A DNA stretch of 64,000 nt, from the IMG/VR virus record IMGVR_UViG_3300025944_000008; one strand, given 5' to 3'. The notes under the pieces were generated by a model. The model saw only the letters and a list, made by a program, of their open reading frames with translations. It was not told where the DNA came from and ran no database searches. Position numbers and translations under genes: made by a program. This document shows, in pieces, positions 45,905 through 60,223 of the stretch (position 1 is its first letter; the number at the start of each line of letters is the position of its first letter). Source of the stretch: a virus. Lineage: Duplodnaviria; Heunggongvirae; Uroviricota; Caudoviricetes.

Positions 45905-48100
45905 CTACGGCACTTCTTTGTTGGTCAGAATACTTGTGGGATTGGCGCCCGCCAAGAGGTTGCCATCCGGGAGGTATTCCTCGACCGTGCTCGTCGGCAG
46001 GTCTGTCGTCACCACAGTCTCCATGGACTTCATGAAGCGGGTGCTCTTTGAGGCGTCCTCAGATGTGAGGCCGAAGAAGTCAGAGAAGAGGCACTGGGTT
46101 AGCAGGTCCTGAGCCCGGTCGAGACCTCGCTCCTCGAGCGTCTTCAGGATGCTTTGCGCCGTCGCATCTGCTGGCTCTTGGGCCTCCGAGATGACGATCG
46201 AGGAGAGCTGCGTGAACAGGTTGCTGAGGCGGGTCTTGATGACCTGGAACGCTCTCAGCGCGTCGTTGACCTGCGCCAGGCTCGGCGTCGTGAGCAGTGG
46301 GGAAAGAAGACCCTGAAGAGGGAGCAAGTCGTTGTTGAACTGGCCATTGAACGAGCTCATGACCGTCGTGGATGTCTGCGCCGCGGCAACCACAGGAGCC
46401 ACGACTCGAACCGCACTCTTTGTCAGAGGCAGCAGAAGACTCGGGTTGAAAAGGATACGAGTACCATCGATCGCCACCACCGTCTGAATGAAGGCACTTG
46501 CGTGGACGATGCTTCCAACAAGAACTCCCAATGCCGCCGGGTCCTGCACCGCTCCCGTCGCATCGGTGATCTGCATCGCCAGAGGTACGGCGATGGCACT
46601 CGTAAAGCCGAAGTCGGTCAGAACGGGGTTGTTGACGACGAGCTTGGACACATTCGGGATCGTCGACCCACTCGTGATCTCGATTTGGTTGGTGAGCGTC
46701 CTGTCGACTGAGATGTTGAAAGTGGGGGTGTAGTTCGTCTTGATGAAGCGAGTCAGGAAGTCCAGATCGAACGAGTCGATTGGAGTACTGACCTGGTCTG
46801 GAGCGAAGCCCAAGATCTCATGCGCCGACGGCCCGTCCGGCGTGAAGATGTTGGTGGTCGCATCGAAGGTCCCCGGCCCAGCGCCTCGAACACGAACGCT
46901 CGTGTCCGTGTTGCTTCCGAAGATGATGATCGCATGGTCGGAGTGGAAGAAGTCCCCCGCAGTGGGGCCGGTGATTCCAAAGACGGCATTGATGTCGGCG
47001 ATGACAGCCGTCCAGGCCTGGGTGGGTCCCGACGTGATGGGTATGGCGTAGTGCGTTATGCCGTCCGACCCTGGTGACGGGCCAGGCGTAACCTCGACGT
47101 AGAGCTTCAGACCGGCAGGGATGTTGAAGCTCGCCTGCGCCAGGCTGTTGCAGACGAACGGGCACCCCGACTTGCTTGCCCCTGGTATCTCGTAGGACTG
47201 CGCTGAGATGCCGTCAGCGCCCATGGAGGTGCTGTGGGGGTGGGAGGCGACCGTGCTGAGGTCTGGCGAGCCCACAGAGCTCAGGGTGAAGGCACTGGTG
47301 GGCTCCGGGCCGATGAAGAGGCCCTGGGACAGTGGGATCGTGTCGTCGTAGACCTTCTTGGTGTTGGAGATCGACTGCAGCGAGGCGTTGCCTGCCATCA
47401 GCTCGAGTGCGGCGACCGTATTGGACATGCCGCCGCTCGTCATTCCGGCCTGAATCTGCTGCAGAGAGGTTCGAACGCGAGCGATGGTCTGGGTATGCAC
47501 CACTCTCGACAAGTCGATGCCGTTGTAGCTTGCGATCGCGCCAGACAGCGTTGCCAGCCGGCTGATGAAGAGCTGGTGCGTCTGCGTGAAGAGGCCGAGG
47601 GCGTTGAAGAGGTCCTGCTTCGCCTCCGTCCCTGATCTGTTGAAGTCGGTCGACGGGTTCCTCTTCAGCAGCGGAGCAAGCTGGTTGTTGAGGAAATTGT
47701 TGATTGAATTCTGGTAGCGAGTGTAGGCCTGCAGATTCGTGTCGATGCGCCCGATACGATCGAGCTCGACTAGAGCTGTCTGTGCATCGATGAGGTCGGC
47801 AGTGCTCGACGGAAGACCATCTGGGTTCTGGGTCTCGCCGATCGCAGCCGTGATGTAGTCGATGAGCTCGATATCGGACGTAATGAGCTGCTGCAGCGTA
47901 TTCTTGGCGTTCAAGAAGATCGACAGAATAGCCTGCGGATTCAGGAGCAGCGCAATAGCGATCGACTCGAGAACGGCCTGATTCTCAGTCGCCGTGTCTG
48001 CGTCGGAGTTGAGTCTGGTACCAGTGGTCTGTCGAGAGAGGTACTTGCCGACGACCGATGCCGTGTCGATGCTAGTCGCCATCCTCACCCTCTTCATCAC
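45905..48100 (-). CDS. Virion structural protein, 731 aa (helical N-terminal third, beta-rich remainder)
   Basis: Long ORF; late operon. Confidence 0.65.
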   Translation of the reverse strand: MMKRVRMATSIDTASVVGKYLSRQTTGTRLNSDADTATENQAVLESIAIALLLNPQAILSIFLNAKNTLQQLITSDIELIDYITAAIGETQNPDGLPSSTADLIDAQTALVELDRIGRIDTNLQAYTRYQNSINNFLNNQLAPLLKRNPSTDFNRSGTEAKQDLFNALGLFTQTHQLFISRLATLSGAIASYNGIDLSRVVHTQTIARVRTSLQQIQAGMTSGGMSNTVAALELMAGNASLQSISNTKKVYDDTIPLSQGLFIGPEPTSAFTLSSVGSPDLSTVASHPHSTSMGADGISAQSYEIPGASKSGCPFVCNSLAQASFNIPAGLKLYVEVTPGPSPGSDGITHYAIPITSGPTQAWTAVIADINAVFGITGPTAGDFFHSDHAIIIFGSNTDTSVRVRGAGPGTFDATTNIFTPDGPSAHEILGFAPDQVSTPIDSFDLDFLTRFIKTNYTPTFNISVDRTLTNQIEITSGSTIPNVSKLVVNNPVLTDFGFTSAIAVPLAMQITDATGAVQDPAALGVLVGSIVHASAFIQTVVAIDGTRILFNPSLLLPLTKSAVRVVAPVVAAAQTSTTVMSSFNGQFNNDLLPLQGLLSPLLTTPSLAQVNDALRAFQVIKTRLSNLFTQLSSIVISEAQEPADATAQSILKTLEERGLDRAQDLLTQCLFSDFFGLTSEDASKSTRFMKSMETVVTTDLPTSTVEEYLPDGNLLAGANPTSILTNKEVP

Positions 48101-48466
48101 GAGAAGACGAAGAGCCGAGGACAGCCAAGAAGGCCTTCGTCGAATCTCTACTGCCGGTCCGCTCCAGGAACTCCATCTTCTTGACCTGTTCTCTCGTCAC
48201 TCGTCTTGAGAATGCCCGCACGAGCTCAACATTGATGTCGAGGGCGTGGCAGATGTTCTCGAGGCTATTGACGAGGCGGGACGGATCGAAGAGCCAACGC
48301 TCGGCGTCCAGCGCGAACTTGCGGAGCTTCAGATCGCGGTGGCTCTTGTAGAGAGCAAAATCGAACGCCGCTCTGATGATGACTTTGATCCAGAGAAGGC
48401 GGACCGGAGCATAGCGCTCTGGAGGCGGAGACGGGAGGCTGGCCGCCAGGCGCTTGACGTAGTCGA
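48072..48466 (-). CDS. ATG-less coding segment (about 131 codons) in the -1 frame relative to the upstream 313-aa gene; candidate frameshift extension or non-AUG-initiated gene
   Basis: Protein-like translation (…DYVKRLAASLPSPPPERYAPVRLLWIKVIIRAAFDFALYKSHRDLKLRKFALDAERW…EEGEDGD). Open in the -1 frame far upstream. No in-frame ATG/GTG/TTG before the last 34 codons. Fills the gap between the 313-aa gene stop and the 731-aa gene start. Confidence 0.35.
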
Positions 48467-49408
48467 CTAGGTGATTGTTACAGTCAGGGTCTCGCTGATG
48501 AAGGCCGGCGGGCTTGGCCAGAAGATCGACTGCGGCAGGGACCGAACTAAGGTGACGGTTCCGGTTCCCGTCTTGTACGGCGTCACCTGTGTGCTTCCGT
48601 TCGACAGGATGATGCTGAAGAGATCGGGATCCGAGTAGACGTAGTCGAGCCTTGCGAAGGGCGGTAGCTGTGTCCGATTGCTGGGAGTTGTCCCGCTCGT
48701 CGTTCCGTCCGCGTAGTGAATTGTTCCCAGCGTTGCGTCCCCGTTCGGCCCCGCCGCGAGCGGAATGGAAATAGAGTCCACTGAGAACTCCACCAGGACC
48801 GGCAATGGAAACAGCAAGTTCACCAACGACACCGCTGGAAGCGGGGGCCCGATCACGTCCAGCGCCAGTGGGTCGATACCCAGGATCGGGAAGCTGTCGA
48901 CCGCTCTCAGGTAGGCCTTGTAGACGACCCCGCGCAGTAGGTCGAACTGGAAGTGTCCGTTCTGGTCCGGCTTGACCTCTATCTGCGACTGCACTGAGAC
49001 CAGATTTCCTCCGACCACTTGCAGGTCGGTCGTCGGTCGAAACGAGATCCGCAAGTCGTGAATCGGAAGGCCGTCCACGCCCAGAAGGTCGCCCGAAGCC
49101 CTGCACCGAAGAGGATCTGGTGATTCGGGCAAGGTGGAGACGTGACTCGAGACGAGAAAGTTGTTCGAGATCGCGAGCGAATCGACCACGATCCGCTGCG
49201 GCTGCCTTGGCAGGATCGAGACGCCTTGCTTGTAGAACAGGACGTTGTACGGCCCATCGGGGAGCAGGAAGGAAACGTTCCCACTGCTGTCCGTTGTCCC
49301 CGACGTAACGAGCGCGCCAAGCGTGGTGTAGATCTGCACCACCACTGACTGGACGGGCTGCGGCGACGGCTGGTCGTCCTGGACGGTCAGTTGGACTGGC
49401 GTCGACAT
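48467..49408 (-). CDS. Virion structural protein with carboxypeptidase-regulatory-like beta-sandwich motif, 313 aa
   Basis: SSGNVSFLLPDGPYNVLFYKQGV pattern; start at MSTPVQ (TAATG overlap with the upstream gene at 49408). Confidence 0.55.
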   Translation of the reverse strand: MSTPVQLTVQDDQPSPQPVQSVVVQIYTTLGALVTSGTTDSSGNVSFLLPDGPYNVLFYKQGVSILPRQPQRIVVDSLAISNNFLVSSHVSTLPESPDPLRCRASGDLLGVDGLPIHDLRISFRPTTDLQVVGGNLVSVQSQIEVKPDQNGHFQFDLLRGVVYKAYLRAVDSFPILGIDPLALDVIGPPLPAVSLVNLLFPLPVLVEFSVDSISIPLAAGPNGDATLGTIHYADGTTSGTTPSNRTQLPPFARLDYVYSDPDLFSIILSNGSTQVTPYKTGTGTVTLVRSLPQSIFWPSPPAFISETLTVTIT

Positions 49409-50385
49409 TATCCCTCTCGGATGGGCATGGGGGGAGCTTGGACGATGGAGAAGGGATCTGGCTGCGTCGAGAGAATGGCCAAGAGGTCGATGCTCGTGGC
49501 CGGTGATTGAGCCGCGGGCACGACGCACTCACGCGAGTAGCCGGAGCCCTCGAAGAAGACCCGAATCGTGGAACCGACGACCAGGTTTGTCTGCGCATGC
49601 CCAGATGCATCTGTGGTCAGCTCGATCCTATCGCTGCTCGGTAGTAAGCCATAGTCTATACTACCGTTTAGGAATTGTTGCATCACCACAGGCACGATAA
49701 TTATGCGCCGACCGACGACTGGCGCACCGGTAACCGAGACGAGGTCAACGGTCGCCAAGACGAGGCTTCCATTGGCCAAAACCTGAGACGGATTCGCCTG
49801 TTGGGGTGTCGAGAAGGCTGAAACCGCGTTGGTCTTTGAGCTCCAGTACCTCGTCTTGTACCAGTAGGTGGGATCTCCGCCGAGGTCCGTGAACTTGTAC
49901 TGGGTGTTCAGGAGCCCGATCAAGATTCTCGGCGCAACTCCGCTCTGAAGAGTCGAAGGAAGACCGAAGACCACGAGCGCGTTGCCCGTGAGCAAGATCG
50001 TCGAGCCGGTGCCGGTGAGCGGGTTGGTCAAGTCGAAGACAGCGTTGTCGTCTGGGTCGATCTGAGCCAGGCCAGGAATCGCCAGATTGATTTGCTGAAC
50101 GACGTCTTCGATTCGAAGCGGGCCTGGGCCGGTGTTGGCGTCGTGGAAGGTGATGGCGACTGGGTCGGCACTGCTCAGGGAGACGTTGAGCACGAGCCCA
50201 GAGACCGCCCACGGTGGTGAGGTGGTACTCTTCGCCACGGCCGCGGTCTCCGGCGAGCCGGTGATCTCGGTGTATGTGCCGCTCGACCCAGTCGTCGACC
50301 GCCAGACCTGCATATGGTCGTACAGCGCCAATACATTCTGGAGCTGGTCGAGAGGGATGTTGAATGTCAGAAGTGTCGCGGTCAT
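49408..50385 (-). CDS. Virion structural protein, 325 aa
   Basis: ORF in the late operon. Confidence 0.55.
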   Translation of the reverse strand: MTATLLTFNIPLDQLQNVLALYDHMQVWRSTTGSSGTYTEITGSPETAAVAKSTTSPPWAVSGLVLNVSLSSADPVAITFHDANTGPGPLRIEDVVQQINLAIPGLAQIDPDDNAVFDLTNPLTGTGSTILLTGNALVVFGLPSTLQSGVAPRILIGLLNTQYKFTDLGGDPTYWYKTRYWSSKTNAVSAFSTPQQANPSQVLANGSLVLATVDLVSVTGAPVVGRRIIIVPVVMQQFLNGSIDYGLLPSSDRIELTTDASGHAQTNLVVGSTIRVFFEGSGYSRECVVPAAQSPATSIDLLAILSTQPDPFSIVQAPPMPIREG

Positions 50386-51313: not shown

Positions 51314-54300
51314 TTAGTTCAGGACTTCAACAGTGGTGACGGTTCCAGAGACAGTCTGGCTGGCAGCGCTGAGAGTAGCTTGCACGTCGACGGCAAGAGA
51401 TCCTGTCGTATTGATGGTGGTCGTACCGCCGTTGTTGTTCAAATCGGCGAAACCACGAGCGGTAGTCGAGGTCGGGAAGATGACGTTGCCGTCGACCATG
51501 ACCGTGCCGCTCGATCCACAGGTGCGGAAGGTCAGGAATGCATCGACGTCATAGCCCTTCGTGGTGAGCGACGCTCCAACCGTGCTGAGGGCGCCAGTCG
51601 TTGCGATTGTTGTGGCTCCCAGCTTGATGAGCCAGGTGAAGTTGCCTGGCGTCGCCGTAGTGGTGATGACCCCACCGTTGTGAATATGCAGGGTCTTGCC
51701 CGCCGCACAGAAGTTCGCTGGGAGGGTGGCCGTTCCAACGCCGGTGCCGACGATCGTGGCAGTGGTAGCAGTGTTGACCGTACCGTTCGCCGTTGAAGAG
51801 AAGGCGGTTCCCTGCAGCATCTGCTTGAGGCCGAGCTGCTGGGTAGCGAGAGCACTCTGAGTCGAGTCGGTCCAGACATCGCCGTTGGTCGGAGATCCTG
51901 GTGCCGACTGCGAGGCAACGTTGAAGGTGCCATTGACCGTCGAACGAACGCCCGTCTTCGAGATCGAGACGCTGGTAGCGTTCGAGGTGCCAAGCTGCAG
52001 CGCCGCGGCAGAGTCGACCGTAGTGTTACCGCTGCTCGTCGTGATGGTGGACGCTGCATTGCCGGTCAGACTGATGGCGCCAGTCAACTGAGTGAGGCCA
52101 CCAGTGATCGTCGTCGTAATACCAGAGCGGCCGATATTGACCGCGCTCGCGTTGGTGCCACCAATCGTGATGGTGCCGGCGGTGCCACTGTTGACCTTCG
52201 TTCCGCCATCGATCGTGACACTGCCACCGTTGACGTTGCCGCCGAACGCACCAACAGAGCCTGAGTTGCCAGCGGTGATGGTGACGTTACCACCAGGACC
52301 TGGGGGGCCCTGGGCACTGCCGTTTCCACCGTTTCCGCCGATGATTTGAGCGGCACCGCCAGTTCCGCCAGAGATGGAGTTGTTGTTGGTCGCTCCACCT
52401 GCTCCACCCTGCAAAGATGCAGCGCCACCGTTACCAGAAGCAGATCCGTTATTATTTGCTCCGCCAGCACCAGCGATAAGAGCCGCAGCGCCGCCCACAG
52501 CACCACCATCTGACGCACCACCGGCGCCGCCCTTACCCGCCGTGATAGTGACCGTTCCTGCAGCGCCAGACGTCGTCGCCGTTCCGCTCGAATCGCTACC
52601 GGCACCAGCGGTGATCGTAACCGCACCACCCTGTGCGCCAGATCCAGTGAAGCCGGAGATCATCGTGTTACCAGCACCGGCCAAGAGCTGAATCGAGCCA
52701 CCTGCGCCAGGGGCTGCGCTTGAGCTACCAACGGAACCCGCAGCAGCGTTGAGTTGGATACCGCCGCCAGTCGCAGCGGCACTTGATGCCGGAGTTCCAC
52801 CCGTGAGCACAACGGCACCACCGGCGCCGCCCGTAGCTCCCGTAGTCCACGTGCCTGCATTACCGCCAGTAATATTGACCGCGCCACCGGCGCCAACAGC
52901 TAGGCCAGAACCGCCGCTATTACCACCGACACCGCCATTGATGTTGACCGCACCGCCAACAGTAGCGCTGCTTCCGCTGCTTGTATTTCCTGCACCGGCA
53001 GTTATGAAGACTCGGCCAGCAGCACCAGGCGCAAACGCAAACCCATTTCCGCCGCCGCCAGCAACGACGGAGATATCACCACCGGCTCCACCAGCAACTG
53101 AACTACCTGGGCCTCCAAGCTGAGCTCCGAGGGCCAAAGGCGTGCCAGCGGTGTCGTTCGCAGCCGCCACCGTACCTGCTGTCAACTGCGAGGCAAAGAA
53201 GTTGCGACCACGAGCCGCATTGGAGCCGATGTCCATCGCCAGATCGCCACCTCCGAAGGCGATGGCCTGGCTGGTTCCAGAGATAGTGAGCGTGTTGTTG
53301 ATCGACATCGTGCCGCCAATTGCGACATTGGCGGGACTACCAACCGTCTGCACATCGATGACGGCAGTACCAAAGCCATCCTTCACAATGAGCGTGTCAG
53401 CGACGGTGCCGTTGTTGGCAATGATGACGCCACCACCATTGGCGGAGGACGTCGTGATCGTTTGATTTCCCGTCGTTGATCCGTGCGCATATACCGAAGA
53501 GAGCGTATTAGCGGCTGCGGTATAGGCCGTTGTCTGCGTAGTGCCGTCACTGAAATTCAGTGCGAGGGAGATTCCGGTCGCGCCAATATTGCAGTTGTTG
53601 GTGTTGGTGGTGCAGATATTGATATTGCCGAATGAGCCGGAGACCGTGTTGCCACCGCTGATAGTAACGCCACCACCGTTGCCCTGTCCGGCTCCACCAT
53701 CAGCTCCCGCATCACCACCTGCAATCGTGAGAAGGCCGCCGTTGCCAGACGCCTGCGCCGCCGATCCAGCACCACCCGTACCGCCCGTGAGGCTGGTCGG
53801 CCCACCGTCGCCCGCGAAGAGGGTGCTGGTAGCAGCCGCACCGGCACCAGCGCGAACGGTCATCGTGCCGCCGCTCTGGCCATTCACCGTCGAAGCGGTG
53901 CCGGCGTTGCCCGCGTTCACCGTGAGGTTCTTGCCCGCGACGTCTGTCGCAGCCGTCCCGATGTTGTACGTAGCGTTGGCCGTTCCCGAGAACTGCAGGA
54001 TCGAGGCGGACAGCGTCAGGTTGGTCGTATTGTTGAAGCGCCAGACGTAAGACGTTGCGCTCGCCGTATTGAAGATCGGCCCCGTTGTAAGAGTAGTACC
54101 GCCGATGGTGATTCCGGCCGTCGAGGTCGTTCCAATGGTGATTGAGCCGTTGACGCCCGTGCCGGATAGAGCACCACCATTGATTGCGACCGAGCCGCCG
54201 TTGCCGCCGCCAGTGCCGCCAGAAGTACCGCCCGAGCCACCATTGATGTTGACGCCACCACCGTTGCCTGGGCCGTTTGTCGAAGCCGCGCCCGTGCCGC

Positions 54301-57300
54301 CCTGACCGCCCTGCACAGTCGCCGCACCACCAACACCAGCAGTGCCTCCAGACGTAGTCGTCGCCGTACCACCCTGGCCCGCAAACAGCGTGGCAGTGCC
54401 ACCAGCACCACCAGGCGTCGCACCAGAGCCGTTGCCACCGTTGCCTTGGCCGAAGAGTAGAGCAGTGCCGGCCACGCCAGTGCCTGGAGTGGTGGCGCGG
54501 ACAATGCCGCCTGGGATGATGATGTTCTGGCCAGAGCGGCCGATGCTCACCTGACCACTGTTGGTCCCACCGATGGTGATGGTGCCGGCTGCTGCTGACC
54601 CAGAAGTGGTGCCCGTATCGATGACGACGTTGCCAGCGCTCGCTCCACCATTGCTACCCTGGACGAGACCGCCATTGCCGGACTGCAGTGTGAGGGTTCC
54701 GCCCGTGCCCGAGGCGCCTGGGGCCGTTCCGGTACCACCCTGCCCGCCTGCGCCAGCCTGAATGGTCCACGCTGCACCATTACCGCCGATGCCGCCGTTG
54801 CCAGTGCCGTTACCTGCTCCGGCGTCGCCACCCTTGTTCGCGGTCCATGCCCACGCTGCGCTCGTAGCGCCATTACCACCATTGCCGTTCGTAACGCCAG
54901 AACCGCCGTTGCCACTCTGAGCGCTCGAGATGGTAATTGCACCCGCCGAAGAGCCACTGTTGCCACTGCTTGCGAGACCCGCTCGACCAATGCCGGCGGT
55001 GATGGTAATTGAGGACCCAGTACCTGCACCGGCACCATTATCTGCGCCACCTGCCTGGCCACTGATCTGAATCGCACCAGCAGCGCCGCCAACAGCCGAT
55101 GCGGTACCGTCGGCAGGGATGGCGCCAAGAACTTGTGTTAGACCGCCCGCCGCGCCGGTGTTATTGCTGCCGCTGGGGGCGACACCCGTGCCGCCTCGAA
55201 TTGATGCAGTACCAGCAGTACCACCACCTGCGCCGTTATTCGTTCCACCAGGCCCACCACGAACAGTACCTGCGCCACCGTTGCCACCAAGGGCCGTAGC
55301 CGTGCCAGCGCCGCCAGAAGCACCCTGGATGACACTCTGGCCACCCGCGCCACCAGTCAGCGAGGCAGTGCCCGCGCCGCCGGTTCCGCCGTTCAGGTTA
55401 AGAGTTGCGCCGCTGCCACCACCCGTCGCTGAAGCGGCACCGCCATTACCAGCCTGAACGGTGAAAGTCGTTCCAGCAGTGTCAGCCGCAGCCGTCGCAA
55501 CATTGAGCGTCTTGCTCGTTCCACTTGCCCACTGAAGTGTGAGCATTGTGCCACCGAGAGTGACAGCGCTGACGGTTGCATCGAGAGTATTGCTCGCCCA
55601 CGTCAGATTCGAGTCGGCAAGTGTCGTCGAGCTCGAGGCGACAGGGATACGCCCAGAGGTCAAGCCACCGATCGTACCGCTAACTCCGCTCGATGTAGCC
55701 GCCGTAACCCGGCCCTGCGCATCGAGAGTGACTGAGCTGATGAAGTTGCCGCCACCGCCGATCGTGCCAGCACCAGGGCCGACGTTCGGAAGACCGATGG
55801 TGACCGTGCCTCCGAGAGAGACAGGGCTGCCGCTGACGCTGATCTGCCCCGCCGTTCCCGTGACGGTGATGGAGCTGTTGGCTAGCGCCGCATTCGGAAC
55901 TGTACCCCAAGACGGCGCAACACCAACGCCGCCAGAGAGCAGCACTTGGTTCGTCGCGACATCTGCAAGGTTGCCGATTGTATTCGATCCAGTTGCGTAA
56001 AGGATGTCGCCCGTTGTCGCCGCATTGGGCAAGGCCAGTGTCGACCAGACTGGAGCAGCCGCCGTTCCGCCAGACCGTAGATAGGAGCCAGCAGTGACGT
56101 CGGCGAGGCGAGACATTGCCTGTCCGCCGGACGTCGAGTACATCAGGTCGCCGGTAGTTGTCGGGGTACCAGTGAGGCAGGTTGTGCAGGTAAGAGTAAG
56201 CGTGCCGCCCAAGGAGACGGACCCACCGCCTCCAAGAGGGCCGGTCGTGCTGATCGTGACCGAGCTATTCGTCAGTGCTGCGTTCGGAACGGTTCCCCAA
56301 GCAGGTAGTGTTCCTGTGCCCTGCGACAGAAGAACCTGATTCACCGCGACAGCAGTGATGCGGCCGACTGCGTTCGTGGCTGTGGCAGCCAACAGATCGC
56401 CCGTCGTTGCGGCGTTCGGAAGAGTCAGCGTCGACCAGAGCGGTGCGGCAGACGAGCCTCCCGAGCGGAGGTACGAGCCAGCAGCAACGTCTGCGAGCGC
56501 GGTCATGGCCTGACCGCCGCTCGTCGAGTAGAGGATATCGCCGATCGCTGACGGTGTACCAACGATGCAAGTCGCGCAGGCGAGAGTGACAGTACCGCCC
56601 AGCGACACTGTGGTACCGCCAGTGATTGGCGAAGTTGTAGAGATGGTGATGGAGCTGTTCGTCAGAGCCGCATTCGGGACAGTTCCCCACGCAGGAAGAG
56701 TCCCGACGCCCTGTGACAGAAGGACTTGGTTCACCGCAACAGCGGTGATTCGACCCATCGTATTCGAGGCGCTCGCCGCGAATAGGTCACCCGTAGTCGC
56801 TGCGTTCGGGAGAATGAGTGTAGACCAAAGAGGCGCAGCACCAACGCCTCCGCTCCGCAGGTATGATCCGACCGCGACGTCGGCGAGCGGAGAGAGTGAC
56901 TGGCCTCCCGCGGTCGAGTACAGGATGTCGCCAGTTGCCGTCGGTGTTCCAACAAGGCAAGTGCTGCAAGTCAGCGTAAGCGAGCCGCCAAGAGAGACTG
57001 TTCCTCCGCCGCCCACCGGTGCTGTGGTGTTGATGGTGACGGAGCTGTTGGTCAGCGAGCCGTTGCCGATGTTGGTCAGCGTGTTGGAGGCGCCGCTGAT
57101 TGTCTTGTTCGTCAGCGTGTCAGCGGTAGCCCGGCCGACAATGGTATCGGTTGCGTCTGGGAGGGTAAGCGTTCTCGTCGTGCTCGGATTCCAGCTCAGC
57201 GTTCCAAGCCCGGCGAGGTTGTCGAACGAGATCGATTTCGTCGTTCCCGTACCGTCACCAATGACTGGGGCCAGCGTAAACGTATGCGTTCCGGTCCAGG

Positions 57301-58126
57301 TTGGGCTGAATCCCTGATTGACTGAGATCGTGCGGTCGGCGGAGAGGTCTCCGATCGCATTGATGCCTGTTCCGCCTGTCAGCGTGCGGGTGACGTTTGT
57401 GACGGCAGTGACTCGTCCCTGCGCATCGAGTCCGACGCTATCACCCGTTGACCAGGTGTACGTTCCGGCACCCGGGCCAACGCTGGGGAGCACGCCAGAT
57501 GGAAGAGACGTGCTCCACGTCGGCGCCGTTCCAACTCCGCCAGAGACGAGAACTGATCCAGTCGCGACATCCGCCAAGCTGCCAATCGAGTTCGTACCAG
57601 TGGCGATGAGAATATCGCCGGTAGTAGCCGCATTCGGAAGTTTGAGCGTCGACCACAGCGGCAGAGCTCCAACACCTCCGCTTCGCAGATAGGAGCCGGC
57701 CGCAACATCTGCCAGCGGGGCCATGGCCTGGCCACCACTGATCGAGTACATGAGGTCGCCGCCGGCGGTAGGAGTGCCGGTGAGGCAGGTAGCGCAGGTC
57801 AGAAGAACAGAGCCACCAAGAGGAACGGTCGGGCTGCCACCACCGAGTGGAGACGATCCCTGGATGCTGATCGTCGAGTTGGCGAGAAGCGCATTGCCGA
57901 TCGAGCCGTTCGGAATAGTGACGTCGGTTCTGTTCGACCCGGAATTATCCGTCGCCTGGAGCGCACCGCTGAAATTGGCGATGCGCCTCTGAGGCAGAGC
58001 CGTTCCACCATTTTGAATCGTGGTGTATGACGGCGTCGGCGAAGGGGATTGTGCAAGTGCTGCAGATGCTGTGAAGAGCGCAAGCGCCCACACAGCAGCT
58101 CGGCATAGCCTCGTCGGTACCGACAC
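51314..58126 (-). CDS. Giant Gly/Thr/Ala/Ser-rich repeat protein with N-terminal signal peptide, 2270 aa (fibre/adhesin-like), GTG start
   Basis: GTG at 58126 with GGAGGA 9 nt upstream. N-terminus MSVPTRLCRAAVWALALFTASAALAQ|SP is signal-peptide-like. About 134-aa tandem repeats carry a CxTC pair (LGG…LTC(A/S/T)TC…GTPT…GD(I/L)(L/M)YS…LADVA.GSYLRSGG…LPNAATTGD), then long GGxGGxG tracts and a distinct C-terminal domain. Confidence 0.75.
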   Translation of the reverse strand: MSVPTRLCRAAVWALALFTASAALAQSPSPTPSYTTIQNGGTALPQRRIANFSGALQATDNSGSNRTDVTIPNGSIGNALLANSTISIQGSSPLGGGSPTVPLGGSVLLTCATCLTGTPTAGGDLMYSISGGQAMAPLADVAAGSYLRSGGVGALPLWSTLKLPNAATTGDILIATGTNSIGSLADVATGSVLVSGGVGTAPTWSTSLPSGVLPSVGPGAGTYTWSTGDSVGLDAQGRVTAVTNVTRTLTGGTGINAIGDLSADRTISVNQGFSPTWTGTHTFTLAPVIGDGTGTTKSISFDNLAGLGTLSWNPSTTRTLTLPDATDTIVGRATADTLTNKTISGASNTLTNIGNGSLTNSSVTINTTAPVGGGGTVSLGGSLTLTCSTCLVGTPTATGDILYSTAGGQSLSPLADVAVGSYLRSGGVGAAPLWSTLILPNAATTGDLFAASASNTMGRITAVAVNQVLLSQGVGTLPAWGTVPNAALTNSSITISTTSPITGGTTVSLGGTVTLACATCIVGTPSAIGDILYSTSGGQAMTALADVAAGSYLRSGGSSAAPLWSTLTLPNAATTGDLLAATATNAVGRITAVAVNQVLLSQGTGTLPAWGTVPNAALTNSSVTISTTGPLGGGGSVSLGGTLTLTCTTCLTGTPTTTGDLMYSTSGGQAMSRLADVTAGSYLRSGGTAAAPVWSTLALPNAATTGDILYATGSNTIGNLADVATNQVLLSGGVGVAPSWGTVPNAALANSSITVTGTAGQISVSGSPVSLGGTVTIGLPNVGPGAGTIGGGGNFISSVTLDAQGRVTAATSSGVSGTIGGLTSGRIPVASSSTTLADSNLTWASNTLDATVSAVTLGGTMLTLQWASGTSKTLNVATAAADTAGTTFTVQAGNGGAASATGGGSGATLNLNGGTGGAGTASLTGGAGGQSVIQGASGGAGTATALGGNGGAGTVRGGPGGTNNGAGGGTAGTASIRGGTGVAPSGSNNTGAAGGLTQVLGAIPADGTASAVGGAAGAIQISGQAGGADNGAGAGTGSSITITAGIGRAGLASSGNSGSSAGAITISSAQSGNGGSGVTNGNGGNGATSAAWAWTANKGGDAGAGNGTGNGGIGGNGAAWTIQAGAGGQGGTGTAPGASGTGGTLTLQSGNGGLVQGSNGGASAGNVVIDTGTTSGSAAAGTITIGGTNSGQVSIGRSGQNIIIPGGIVRATTPGTGVAGTALLFGQGNGGNGSGATPGGAGGTATLFAGQGGTATTTSGGTAGVGGAATVQGGQGGTGAASTNGPGNGGGVNINGGSGGTSGGTGGGNGGSVAINGGALSGTGVNGSITIGTTSTAGITIGGTTLTTGPIFNTASATSYVWRFNNTTNLTLSASILQFSGTANATYNIGTAATDVAGKNLTVNAGNAGTASTVNGQSGGTMTVRAGAGAAATSTLFAGDGGPTSLTGGTGGAGSAAQASGNGGLLTIAGGDAGADGGAGQGNGGGVTISGGNTVSGSFGNINICTTNTNNCNIGATGISLALNFSDGTTQTTAYTAAANTLSSVYAHGSTTGNQTITTSSANGGGVIIANNGTVADTLIVKDGFGTAVIDVQTVGSPANVAIGGTMSINNTLTISGTSQAIAFGGGDLAMDIGSNAARGRNFFASQLTAGTVAAANDTAGTPLALGAQLGGPGSSVAGGAGGDISVVAGGGGNGFAFAPGAAGRVFITAGAGNTSSGSSATVGGAVNINGGVGGNSGGSGLAVGAGGAVNITGGNAGTWTTGATGGAGGAVVLTGGTPASSAAATGGGIQLNAAAGSVGSSSAAPGAGGSIQLLAGAGNTMISGFTGSGAQGGAVTITAGAGSDSSGTATTSGAAGTVTITAGKGGAGGASDGGAVGGAAALIAGAGGANNNGSASGNGGAASLQGGAGGATNNNSISGGTGGAAQIIGGNGGNGSAQGPPGPGGNVTITAGNSGSVGAFGGNVNGGSVTIDGGTKVNSGTAGTITIGGTNASAVNIGRSGITTTITGGLTQLTGAISLTGNAASTITTSSGNTTVDSAAALQLGTSNATSVSISKTGVRSTVNGTFNVASQSAPGSPTNGDVWTDSTQSALATQQLGLKQMLQGTAFSSTANGTVNTATTATIVGTGVGTATLPANFCAAGKTLHIHNGGVITTTATPGNFTWLIKLGATTIATTGALSTVGASLTTKGYDVDAFLTFRTCGSSGTVMVDGNVIFPTSTTARGFADLNNNGGTTTINTTGSLAVDVQATLSAASQTVSGTVTTVEVLN
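55800..57850. repeat. About five tandem copies of a roughly 400-nt repeat inside the giant gene
   Basis: The protein-level 134-aa repeats are mirrored at DNA level. Near-identical peptides recur in same-frame antisense ORFs at about 55870, 56240, 56650, 57030 and 57730. Confidence 0.6.
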
Positions 58127-58181: not shown

Positions 58182-58409
58182 CTACTCGTTAGAAGGTTCT
58201 AGCGGGGAGCCGAGATAGTCGTTGATCGAGTTGGCCAGAATTTTCGAAGCGCCCTGAGCGTTGGCGTCTTGAAGACCGACGCTGCCTCCTCGCTTCTTGG
58301 AGATGTTGTCGAGGAAGTCGAATTGTGCATTCAACCGGTTCTTCTCTTTCGAGAACCAGTCGTCGGCGGCATCTTTGAGCTCTTGGAGTCTCTGCGCTGC
58401 ACCAGCCAT
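58182..58409 (-). CDS. Small protein translationally coupled to the sigma factor gene, 75 aa; candidate sigma partner / anti-sigma
   Basis: ATG overlaps the sigma-gene stop (TGATG at 58411-58407). Helical, charged sequence. Confidence 0.5.
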   Translation of the reverse strand: MAGAAQRLQELKDAADDWFSKEKNRLNAQFDFLDNISKKRGGSVGLQDANAQGASKILANSINDYLGSPLEPSNE

Positions 58410-59227
58410 CAGACCAGCTCCATTGCCTCTTTCAGCTTGTCGACGAGGCGATTACGGATGCGGGAGACCTTGGAAGGGTGAATGCCGGTCGTCTTGGCGA
58501 TCTGGCCCGGCTGATGGCGAGGCTTGCCATTCATGCCGAAGGTGTACTCGTAGACCGTCCGCTCTTCGGGCGTGAGGTCGTACTGCATCAGCTTGATCGC
58601 CTCGAGCTCCTTGGGCGTCATGAGCTCAGCGGGGTCGCTCTCGAAACCAGACGCTGGAAGATCTCGCCGGCGCTCCTTGATCATCTGAACGACGCGGCGC
58701 TGAGGCCAACCAAGATGGTCGGCCAACGTCTTGGTATCCGGCTCGTGCCCGAGTTGGTTCATCAGATGCTCCTTCGCCGCATCAAATCGACGAATCTGGG
58801 AGATCTGCCCCTCGGGGATCTTGCCGATGTTCTGGTAGGTCTTGATGTAGCGAGACGACTTCTGCAGGTTCGTCTGGACCCAGGTGTTGAGCTGAGTTCC
58901 GCGCTTGGGGTTGAAGGTCTTGATAGCGTTGACGAAGTGCCGATCAATCTCGTGATGGATGGCGGCGGTTGGAATCTCGACCTTGTTGGCGTACTTATTC
59001 GCCTCTCGAACGAGAAGTGGCTTGTAGCTCTCGTACAGAGGGATGAGGTGCTCCGGCTTCTGACCATGGGTGTTCCAATGGTGCCAGAGCTCGAGCTCCT
59101 TCTTCTGCGTCTCCTTCATCTCCTCCCGCGACTTCTTCGGCGCGGCTGTCTTGACGTGCTGATCGAGGAAGAGATCGAGGATCTGCGTGTGGTAGTCCGG
59201 GATGTGCGCCAACTGCCGGTTGAGCAT
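58409..59227 (-). CDS. Sigma-70-family RNA polymerase sigma factor (phage-encoded), about 272 aa
   Basis: Region 2: LIPLYESYKPLLVREANKYANK…AIKTFNPKRGTQLNTWVQTNL. Region 4 HTH: LTPEERTVYEYTFGMNGKPRHQPGQIAKTTGIHPSKVSRIRNRLVDKLK. Start assigned to the ATG at 59227 that overlaps the upstream stop (TGATG). The track's longer Arg/Gly-rich N-terminus is in overlap with the upstream gene. Confidence 0.8.
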   Translation of the reverse strand: MLNRQLAHIPDYHTQILDLFLDQHVKTAAPKKSREEMKETQKKELELWHHWNTHGQKPEHLIPLYESYKPLLVREANKYANKVEIPTAAIHHEIDRHFVNAIKTFNPKRGTQLNTWVQTNLQKSSRYIKTYQNIGKIPEGQISQIRRFDAAKEHLMNQLGHEPDTKTLADHLGWPQRRVVQMIKERRRDLPASGFESDPAELMTPKELEAIKLMQYDLTPEERTVYEYTFGMNGKPRHQPGQIAKTTGIHPSKVSRIRNRLVDKLKEAMELV

Positions 59228-59610
59228 CAGCCACCCGTGCGGATTGCGCCCAGCTCGTTGATGAAGCTGCGCACTGCCGCAGCCTTGTAATGCGTCGGAT
59301 ATGCCTGGAACGTGCTCGACTCGTTCAGGACTGCCATCGCCACCTTGAGCAGGGGCGCTGACGTGTCCTTCTCGAACTTGTCCGACGGGAACCACTTGTT
59401 GGCAAACCGCGTCTCGACCTTCTGAGCCTCTCCCATGTTCTTGAAGAGGGTGCCGAGCGTATTGCGGTTGTCGTTGAGGTTCTTGTCGTGCTCGGAGTTG
59501 GCGACGGCCGCGCTGTCGACGTCGTGGTCGAACGTCGGGCCGATCTTCCCGCCATCGGAGATCGATGCCCGCTTCTCCAGCATCTTGATGTAGTCGTCTC
59601 GACGCAGCAT
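59227..59610 (-). CDS. Hypothetical protein, 127 aa
   Basis: ORF coupled to the sigma gene. Confidence 0.45.
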   Translation of the reverse strand: MLRRDDYIKMLEKRASISDGGKIGPTFDHDVDSAAVANSEHDKNLNDNRNTLGTLFKNMGEAQKVETRFANKWFPSDKFEKDTSAPLLKVAMAVLNESSTFQAYPTHYKAAAVRSFINELGAIRTGG

Positions 59611-59611
59611 C

Positions 59612-60223
59612 TCAGACTCCTTGTGGCGCGCTGGACTCGCGGCCGATCATGCCGGGCATCGACTTCACGACGCCGCGGTGTAGCTTGTTTTCGAAGTGTC
59701 CCTGCTGCTGCCCCGTCTGGAGTGCTCGAGCAGGAGTGAAGGTGCTGGAGCCGAGCATTGCAGTCTTCATCTTCTGCTGCTTGATGACCGCCCGCCGGCG
59801 GAGCGCCCGATCGGCGAGAGCAACACCGCTGCCGAGCGCCACGGCCTTTCCCAGGTGCTTCGGTGGAATCTTGAAATCGTGGCCGTGATGGAGGGTGTGC
59901 GCCAGCGTCGCCGCACCAGCCCCCGTCATGCCGCCCTTGAGTGCTGCAGAGGCAAAGTTGGAGGCAGTCTCGTAGGGAGTGCCTGTCGCCGTCGGCTTCT
60001 TGCCGCGCCAGTTGTAGGCGCTGGGCGGGGTGTAGCCCATGAAGCCCATGGCAAGCTTCGGCTTGAAGTTGGTCTCGACTTCGGCGTTCGATCTGATCTG
60101 GCCGCCGGGCAGGTACTCCTTGCCCTTTGCCTCGGCCATCATCGCCCGAATGTCCGCGTCCTGAACCTCGGTGGCGATCTTGATCAGCTCGGCCGTGAAG
60201 GCCCTGTAGCCCAAGAGGTTCAT
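59612..60223 (-). CDS. Hypothetical protein, 203 aa
   Basis: ORF; ATGA overlap with the upstream 71-aa gene. Confidence 0.45.
   Translation of the reverse strand: MNLLGYRAFTAELIKIATEVQDADIRAMMAEAKGKEYLPGGQIRSNAEVETNFKPKLAMGFMGYTPPSAYNWRGKKPTATGTPYETASNFASAALKGGMTGAGAATLAHTLHHGHDFKIPPKHLGKAVALGSGVALADRALRRRAVIKQQKMKTAMLGSSTFTPARALQTGQQQGHFENKLHRGVVKSMPGMIGRESSAPQGV

Follow-up and report, generated by a model that had tools for sequence, protein, structure and literature searches.

Small viruses are well-known carriers of overprinted genes (PMC8227390, PMC6195259), and a depletion of stops in the alternative frame is accepted as a means of detecting them (PMC6188560); in one preprint (bioRxiv 10.1101/724807), long co-directional overlaps are considered nearly absent from prokaryotic genomes. 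Two frameshift systems of tailed phages also bear on the present case, namely lambda gpG/gpGT, in which the shift occurs near the 3' end of G, and T7 gene 10, in which a G GUU UUC-type site acts with a distant 3' stimulator (both PMC5009743). Here we analyse a 64,000-nucleotide (nt) stretch of a Caudoviricetes genome (IMG/VR record IMGVR_UViG_3300025944_000008; hereafter the window), in which a coding segment of 131 codons, devoid of a canonical start codon at its beginning, lies between a structural gene of 313 amino acids (aa) and the gene that follows it. We report that the -1 frame upstream of this segment is kept open by selection, and we tentatively favour the view that the segment is the C-terminal end of a hidden open reading frame (ORF) of ~510 codons that overlaps two structural genes.

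This locus resembles phiX174 A/B/K/E, the MS2 lysis gene and lambda Rz/Rz1 in that a second frame of the same strand runs over existing genes, that stops are depleted in this alternative frame and that the overprinted part is compositionally biased and probably disordered. It differs from them in its extent, since the overprint would cover ~1.1 kb (~377 codons), that is one whole gene and part of another, in a large double-stranded DNA phage, and in its nature, since it would be an N-terminal extension of an older non-overlapping domain and not a new stand-alone protein; moreover, most of the putative extension is without detectable sequence-level constraint. With lambda gpG/gpGT, where the product of the -1 segment is needed together with that of the upstream gene, the locus shares a start-less -1-frame segment between structural genes. 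However, no slippery site is found here, the upstream 313-aa protein has a beta-sandwich N-terminus and is not a small helical chaperone, the downstream gene is not identified as a tape measure, and a selected open frame extends far upstream of any 3' site. T7 gene 10A/10B is likewise comparable as a -1-frame C-terminal extension of a structural protein, but its site and stimulator have no conserved counterpart here. Among the defining sequence features of these two systems, only the start-less -1 segment is found here.

A start-less segment encoding a conserved helical domain

From assemblies in Logan, JGI, NCBI and IMG/VR, we gathered 14 distinct loci of this clade of uncultured phages; L014 was left out as a chimeric contig. 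Within positions 1-400 of that contig (Ga0207711_10329638), probably a chimera, a sequence resembling a D-Ala-D-Ala ligase is joined to the final 82 codons of the small ORF, which are 100% identical. Neither a stop codon nor a frame-breaking indel interrupts the segment in any of the 14 clade loci. The alignment that the first-pass annotation of this DNA had proposed as a check for coding conservation gives identities of 0.78/0.87/0.44 at codon positions 1/2/3 over codons 5-21 past the upstream stop; these 17 codons (xRKLAASLPSPPPERYAP) precede every canonical start in nine of the 13 close lineages. The domain has a mean aa identity of 82% in 13 lineages while third positions have diverged, and the distance from stop to domain and the frame relation are identical in all of these lineages. 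Such codon comparisons demonstrate that the segment at 48072-48467 is coding. Sequencing or assembly error is ruled out by the same arrangement in 14 independent assemblies.

A protein search returned 12 homologues of 86-150 aa (56-88% identity), all called as separate genes with differing, arbitrary N-termini. The AlphaFold (AF2) model of the segment has seven helices and a mean predicted local distance difference test (pLDDT) score of 76, with 86-94 over residues 21-100 and a disordered acidic tail (EEGEDGD), in agreement with the helical polypeptide and acidic end read earlier from the sequence. Foldseek aligned this model with the BFVD entry A0A6J5LQ74 (E = 4.6e-5, 35% identity, TM 0.58/0.72), and the fold matches are only uncharacterized small proteins of uncultured Caudovirales. 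These have the same helical domain but are called as stand-alone proteins, of 42-294 aa among the best 150 of the 260 cluster representatives that a full-library profile search returned. Most of these best 150 have 100-230 aa and none is a fusion of the domain to a large protein; in the family's commonest architecture, the protein has 100-140 aa and the domain begins at residue 20-35. No sequence-profile or structural match for the small ORF was found in the PDB, no match in Pfam, PHROG and NCBIfam scans, no match to it or to the 313-aa protein in the phage GenBank collection, and no relative in GTDB genomes.

Within the clade, no start codon after the upstream stop is conserved. The window and L012 have no canonical start at the junction, and the arrangement that defines stop/start coupling, a canonical start on the stop or within a few nt of it, is absent from the window. 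In L009, a GTG is present at +3 (positions are counted from the upstream stop), at the junction itself. Five loci (L006, L016-L019) have a GTG at +63 and three (L008, L013, L020) at +57, while in L001 the nearest GTG/TTG are at -63/-54, inside the 313-like gene, with none downstream before +246. The first-pass annotation had stated that the frame holds no start until 34 codons from its end. This overlooked GTG 48221 and GTG 48200 (49 and 42 codons from the end), but it is correct that none occurs between GTG 49106 and the domain. The next canonical starts after GTG 49106 are these two and ATG 48176, and none of the three can serve the domain since all lie inside it. The segment being coding without a canonical start of its own in the clade, its translation must come from upstream or from a non-canonical codon.

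The situation is different in two outgroups. L022, a 199-kb viral contig with 54% GC, encodes a homologue of 202 aa, its ATG sharing an ATGA overlap with the upstream stop, and L015 has its own ATG overlapping that stop as TAATG; both homologues have ~95 extra N-terminal residues relative to the non-overlapping part in the window clade. Translational coupling of the ATGA/TAATG type is thus present at the same junction in these outgroups, whereas the window clade has lost the overlap start: where the ancestral ATG stood, the window has GTC, and other loci of the clade have ATC, ACC, GTT or GCG. To judge from the outgroups, this was ancestrally an ordinary gene in ATGA or TAATG coupling with the upstream stop, and the -1 relation of the two frames follows from this 1- or 4-nt overlap. 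A normally initiated gene, which the first-pass annotation regarded as contrary to its own reading, does exist in L022, L015 and L009, but it is not kept in the 13 closest lineages. Another arrangement is found in L025, an independent 134-kb viral contig with 61% GC, in which the small gene (2156-2809) has no start past the stop, but has an in-frame GTG 64 codons inside the upstream gene, preceded by an AAGGA Shine-Dalgarno (SD) sequence. With L025, N-terminal overlap appears to have a second instance in this gene family.

Selection on the upstream -1 frame

Relative to the 313-aa gene, which it overlaps over its entire length, the frame closed by the stop at 48072 is the -1 frame; relative to the preceding 325-aa gene, whose 3' end it covers, it is the +1 frame. 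That it stays open for more than 1 kb upstream was already noticed in the first reading of the sequence; it is stop-free from 49616, over 514 codons. For the window taken by itself, the probability that the -1 frame of the 313-aa gene is open throughout is ~0.01. In the clade, the 313-like gene contains no -1-frame stop in 14 of 14 loci; its +1 frame contains 4-13 stops, and neighbouring gene families contain 3-11 stops in their -1 frames. The outgroups with their own ATG do carry such stops, 17 in L022 and one in the 100 codons available in L015.

A -1-frame stop requires a third-position T followed by AA, AG or GA. At such junctions, the stop-forming T is present in 267 of 3155 cases (8.5%) in the other genes of these loci, and in none of 353 (eight loci) or 575 (14 loci) in the 313-like genes. 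A plain synonymous-shuffle null overpredicts -1-frame stops about two-fold in all genes and was replaced by context- and amino-acid-specific nulls. The amino-acid-specific null predicts 46 stops (P = 4e-22; with seven well separated lineages only, 4e-12), and every one of five segments of the gene is significantly depleted, including the first columns of the alignment (7.5e-5 for columns 0-52, 6e-4 for columns 53-104). T before other purines is also scarce in the 313-like gene (6.7% vs 20.6%), and a stricter null, scaled by the gene's own rate of T before purine, still predicts ~16 stops (P ~1e-7). This scarcity is meaningful in itself, because such a T creates Cys, Trp, Tyr or stop codons in the -1 frame. 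Indeed, the -1-frame product contains 0.4% Cys and 1.1% Trp, against 3.4% and 2.9% in the -1 frames of other genes, and the 313-aa gene is the extreme of 23 window genes for this Cys/Trp depletion. Taken over all loci, these codon comparisons demonstrate selection against stop, Cys and Trp codons in the upstream -1 frame. Identity between lineages at four-fold degenerate sites is 0.45 in the 313-like gene, close to the values of 0.38-0.42 in its neighbours. By this measure, the lineages are nearly independent of each other, and no general constraint of the -1 frame is detectable at the level of the sequence.

The open frame does not end at the start of the 313-like gene. In nine loci it extends 52-103 codons upstream of this start (P ~1e-3, 43 opportunity sites), and in the window it is bounded by an in-frame TGA at 49619-49617. 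Ahead of the domain, its canonical starts are ATG 49610, ATG 49598, GTG 49532 and GTG 49106. The ATG formed from GGG CAT GCN of the 325 frame is kept in eight of nine loci, although CAT represents only 22% of His codons (P ~4e-5); in the exception, L005, a different ATG is present 12 nt farther upstream. The first ATG follows the last upstream stop by one or two codons in five loci. At the codon level, this upstream ATG is conserved. GTG 49106, at an invariant Arg-Cys pair of the 313-aa protein, is kept in 10 of 12 loci (P ~7e-4). It is the only canonical start of the -1 frame inside the 313-aa gene, where a -1-frame NTG is possible only at frame-0 Cys or Trp codons, but it has no SD and the stop depletion extends upstream of it.

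Possible routes to translation of the segment

In our preferred but tentative reading, ribosomes would initiate at ATG 49598 (or 49610) and continue over the final 63-67 codons of the 325-aa gene (in +1 relative to it), over the whole 313-codon gene (in -1 relative to it) and finally over the non-overlapping domain, producing a protein of 508 or 512 aa. Its first ~377 residues would be basic (isoelectric point ~11.7), poorly conserved and probably disordered, and its last ~110 residues would be the conserved domain. That initiation takes place at the upstream ATG, and that the long polypeptide is the functional product, we infer from the comparison of the loci. The long ORF fits best with the missing start, the conservation that begins at the end of the overlap, the avoidance of stop, Cys and Trp codons and the conserved ATG, and L025 offers a precedent in an independent lineage, its start being inside the upstream gene. 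Several observations weigh against this interpretation. With the synonymous sites of the 313-aa gene almost saturated, ~377 residues of the product would be free of sequence-level constraint, which is unusual in a protein. The size of the family members (most 100-230 aa, none >294 aa among the best 150 of 260) fits the 131-aa segment alone, even if the long form would be missing from the databases because gene callers could not have reported it. Support for extending the frame upstream of the 313 start is only moderate, with its 43 opportunity sites; L009 has a stop after the conserved ATG and would need a different start; and the candidate starts of the long frame have no good SD, unlike most genes of this phage. 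With still more reserve, we suggest that the clade turned a coupled small gene into the C-terminal domain of a ~510-codon overprinting ORF, in which selection keeps only openness and coarse composition.

The main competing explanation, which we regard as unlikely though far from negligible, is a protein of ~124-131 aa made by restart beyond TAG 48469-48467 at a near-cognate codon (CTG 48449 in the window; ATC, ATT, CTG or TTG at +9 or +18 in relatives), such a start being weak, SD-less and dependent on termination. The outgroups couple stop and start at this very place, by ATGA in L022 and TAATG in L015, the GTG of L009 comes one codon later, and every close lineage has at least one of ATG/GTG/TTG/CTG/ATT/ATC/ATA within eight codons of the stop; the 131-aa segment also suits the commonest architecture of the family. 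The codon at +9 is ATC (seven), ATT (three), CTG, TTG or, in the window, GTC, and never ATG or GTG; with this Ile/Leu/Val pattern, it resembles a decoded hydrophobic residue and not a start. At +18, the CTG of the window is matched by TTG in L002, L005 and L013, but eight other loci have CTC, TTC or ATC, and six lineages have CTC or TTC. No SD is present, and restart leaves unexplained both the conserved upstream ATG and the exclusion of stop, Cys and Trp codons over the whole upstream gene. Were it correct nonetheless, the strong stop depletion would still lack an explanation and would be worth understanding. A decaying gene that has lost its start and is no longer expressed in the clade would agree with the absence of a canonical start in the window, but its probability is negligible, as it is effectively refuted by the coding signature (82% domain identity and no stops or frame-breaking indels in 14 loci).

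The first-pass annotation had instead proposed a C-terminally extended isoform of the 313-aa protein, which would reach ~444 aa if ribosomes slipped into the -1 frame close to the gene's 3' end. The downstream frame is indeed -1 and start-less, its distance and frame relative to the stop are invariant in 13 lineages, the -1 frame is open upstream as a slip site would need, and non-canonical phage sites exist, such as G_GU in T7 gene 10 (PMC5009743). Nevertheless, no strict or relaxed X XXY YYZ heptamer is conserved in any column of the 14-sequence codon alignment of the 313-like gene, which extends to the whole gene the earlier remark that no canonical heptamer is visible near its 3' end; the best relaxed case (N GGA AAY, column 139) occurs in six of 14 sequences, and no tetramer of the Y YYZ type (A AAN / T TTN) is conserved in phase. 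The search for a non-canonical site with a downstream structure, suggested at the same time, yielded neither in conserved form: third positions vary freely in the last 30 codons, and RNAalifold found no covariation and no conserved structure between -60 and +123 around the stop in 13 loci (-3.2 kcal/mol). A possible SD-like stimulator, the motif GGTGA ~17 nt ahead of the stop, is imposed by Thr-Val-Thr codons, and its presence speaks neither for nor against a shift. No in-frame fusion of the 313-like and small proteins exists among the 12 close homologues (<=150 aa) or the best 150 of 260 representatives (<=294 aa). The -1 relation is already accounted for by the ancestral ATGA/TAATG overlap, and a 3'-end slip is insufficient because stops are also excluded over the first 200 codons, or two thirds, of the gene and in the preceding 325-like gene. 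We therefore consider a slip at this 3' end unlikely, and programmed -1 frameshifting from the 313-aa gene as a whole improbable. The proline run of the 325-aa gene would offer yet another route, since this gene has the long frame as its +1 frame. Ribosomes stall at Pro-Pro and are prone to +1 slips at CCC C, which speaks for a +1 shift at CCC CCC A (APPMP, seven codons before the stop); a shift there, or else at GGG C(AT), would give the 325-aa protein with ~450 additional residues. CCC CCN is present in seven of nine loci, but the site is CCG CCC in L001 and CCA CCC in L006 and L016, no stimulatory element was identified, and a shift at the proline run explains neither the stop-free interval from -155 to -25 (~38 opportunity pairs at 14.8%, P ~2e-3) nor the conserved T of CAT; this route is more improbable still. 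Transcriptional slippage (no homopolymer run), hopping over the stop (no matching landing codon) and -1-frame initiation from the SD of the 313-aa gene (no start-like codon there) were ruled out.

Gene finders forbid long same-strand overlaps, so that a frame such as the proposed ~510-codon ORF is invisible to annotation; on this reading, all 12 database homologues of 86-150 aa would be truncated calls. If it is real, it would be among the longest same-strand gene overlaps in a tailed phage, as far as is known, and an overlap of ~1.1 kb that covers a complete structural gene and extends an older domain would be new for a large double-stranded DNA phage. Overprinting in such phages could then span a whole structural gene, an N-terminal extension could be held open by selection over tens of percent of divergence while its sequence is not conserved, and missing start codons in phage structural modules would not necessarily imply frameshifting. 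The loci would also form an evolutionary series for the origin of an overlap, from the outgroups with their own ATG to the 64-codon overlap of L025 and the ~377 codons of this clade.

Gene layout and further features of the window

The minus strand carries all genes of this part of the window (Table 1). The order of the genes is kept in relatives: a protein of 312-325 aa, one of 313 aa, the small ORF, and proteins of 723-743, 117, 217 and ~1570 aa, the last of which is baseplate-wedge-like. The 325-aa and 313-aa genes are of similar size and are neighbours in all relatives; their products have no match in GenBank phages or PHROGs. The N-terminus of the 313-aa protein is a CarboxypepD_reg-like beta-sandwich (Pfam E 2.9e-7, under the curated cutoff), and this protein has a mean aa identity of 65% among the loci, with four-fold sites near saturation. 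The stop of its gene lies at 48467, as originally read. The gene downstream of the segment was listed as 731 aa from GTG 48100, with a 29-nt overlap. Since the N-terminus MATSIDT is kept in relatives and an SD (GAGGGTGAGG) precedes ATG 48082, it most likely begins at this ATG, and the overlap shrinks accordingly.

Table 1. Coordinates of the genes, reading frames and candidate signals at the locus (positions in the window)
Feature	Position	Strand	Remarks
325-aa gene	49408-50385	-	TAA stop and start of the 313-aa gene overlap as TAATG
313-aa structural gene (frame 0)	48467-49408	-	stop TAG at 48469-48467
Start-less coding segment	48072-48467	-	131 codons and stop TAG at 48074-48072; outside the overlap
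Full open frame, stop to stop	48072-49616	-	514 codons
Next gene	45905-48082	-	725 aa from ATG 48082; overlaps the end of the small ORF by 11 nt
Candidate starts of the long frame (ATG)	49610-49608, 49598-49596	-	from GAT GCA and GGG CAT GCG of the 325 frame
Possible internal start (GTG)	49106-49104	-	CGG/TGC at an invariant Arg-Cys pair of the 313-aa protein; 344-aa product
Candidate near-cognate start (CTG)	48447-48449	-	seven codons past the stop-overlapping codon; ~124-aa product; no SD
Raised synonymous conservation	48623-48832	-	two stretches; rare TTG, TTT, ATT, GAT codons kept in nearly all 14 loci

Synonymous conservation is raised locally inside the 313-aa gene, in two stretches that share similar motifs (TCTATTTCCATTCC and GTCTACTCCGATCC) and follow the pattern AAC TTG CTG TTT CC ... 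TCT ATT TCC ATT CC ... CCG CCC TTC GC ... TCC GAT CC. Identity at four-fold sites is 0.57 in columns 200-272 vs 0.45 elsewhere (Mann-Whitney P = 5e-4 for this region, which was picked post hoc; window permutation P = 0.07). Possible causes are a constraint imposed by the -1 frame, a site of protein binding or an internal duplication. The conserved motifs TCTATTTCCATTCC and GAACTTGCTGTTTCC are not repeated elsewhere in the window, and a shared promoter or operator derived from them is unsupported for this reason.

A scan for sigma-70 promoters and terminators between 47800 and 50600 gave nothing useful, although promoters of the phage's own sigma factor would escape it. The phage may use promoters of its own, unseen by such a scan, since a 328-aa gene of the structural block (58409-59395, minus strand) matches an RNA polymerase sigma factor (PHROG 351, E = 8.9e-14). 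Two other genes on the minus strand are of interest for their -1 frames. The 203-aa gene at 59612-60223 likewise has no -1-frame stop where ~1.8 are expected, an observation made on the window sequence only that may be due to chance. The 2270-aa protein encoded at 51314-58126 consists of Gly/Ala/Thr/Ser-rich repeats and is fibre-like; its gene has the highest third-position T (T3) and the most -1-frame Cys and Trp of all genes examined.

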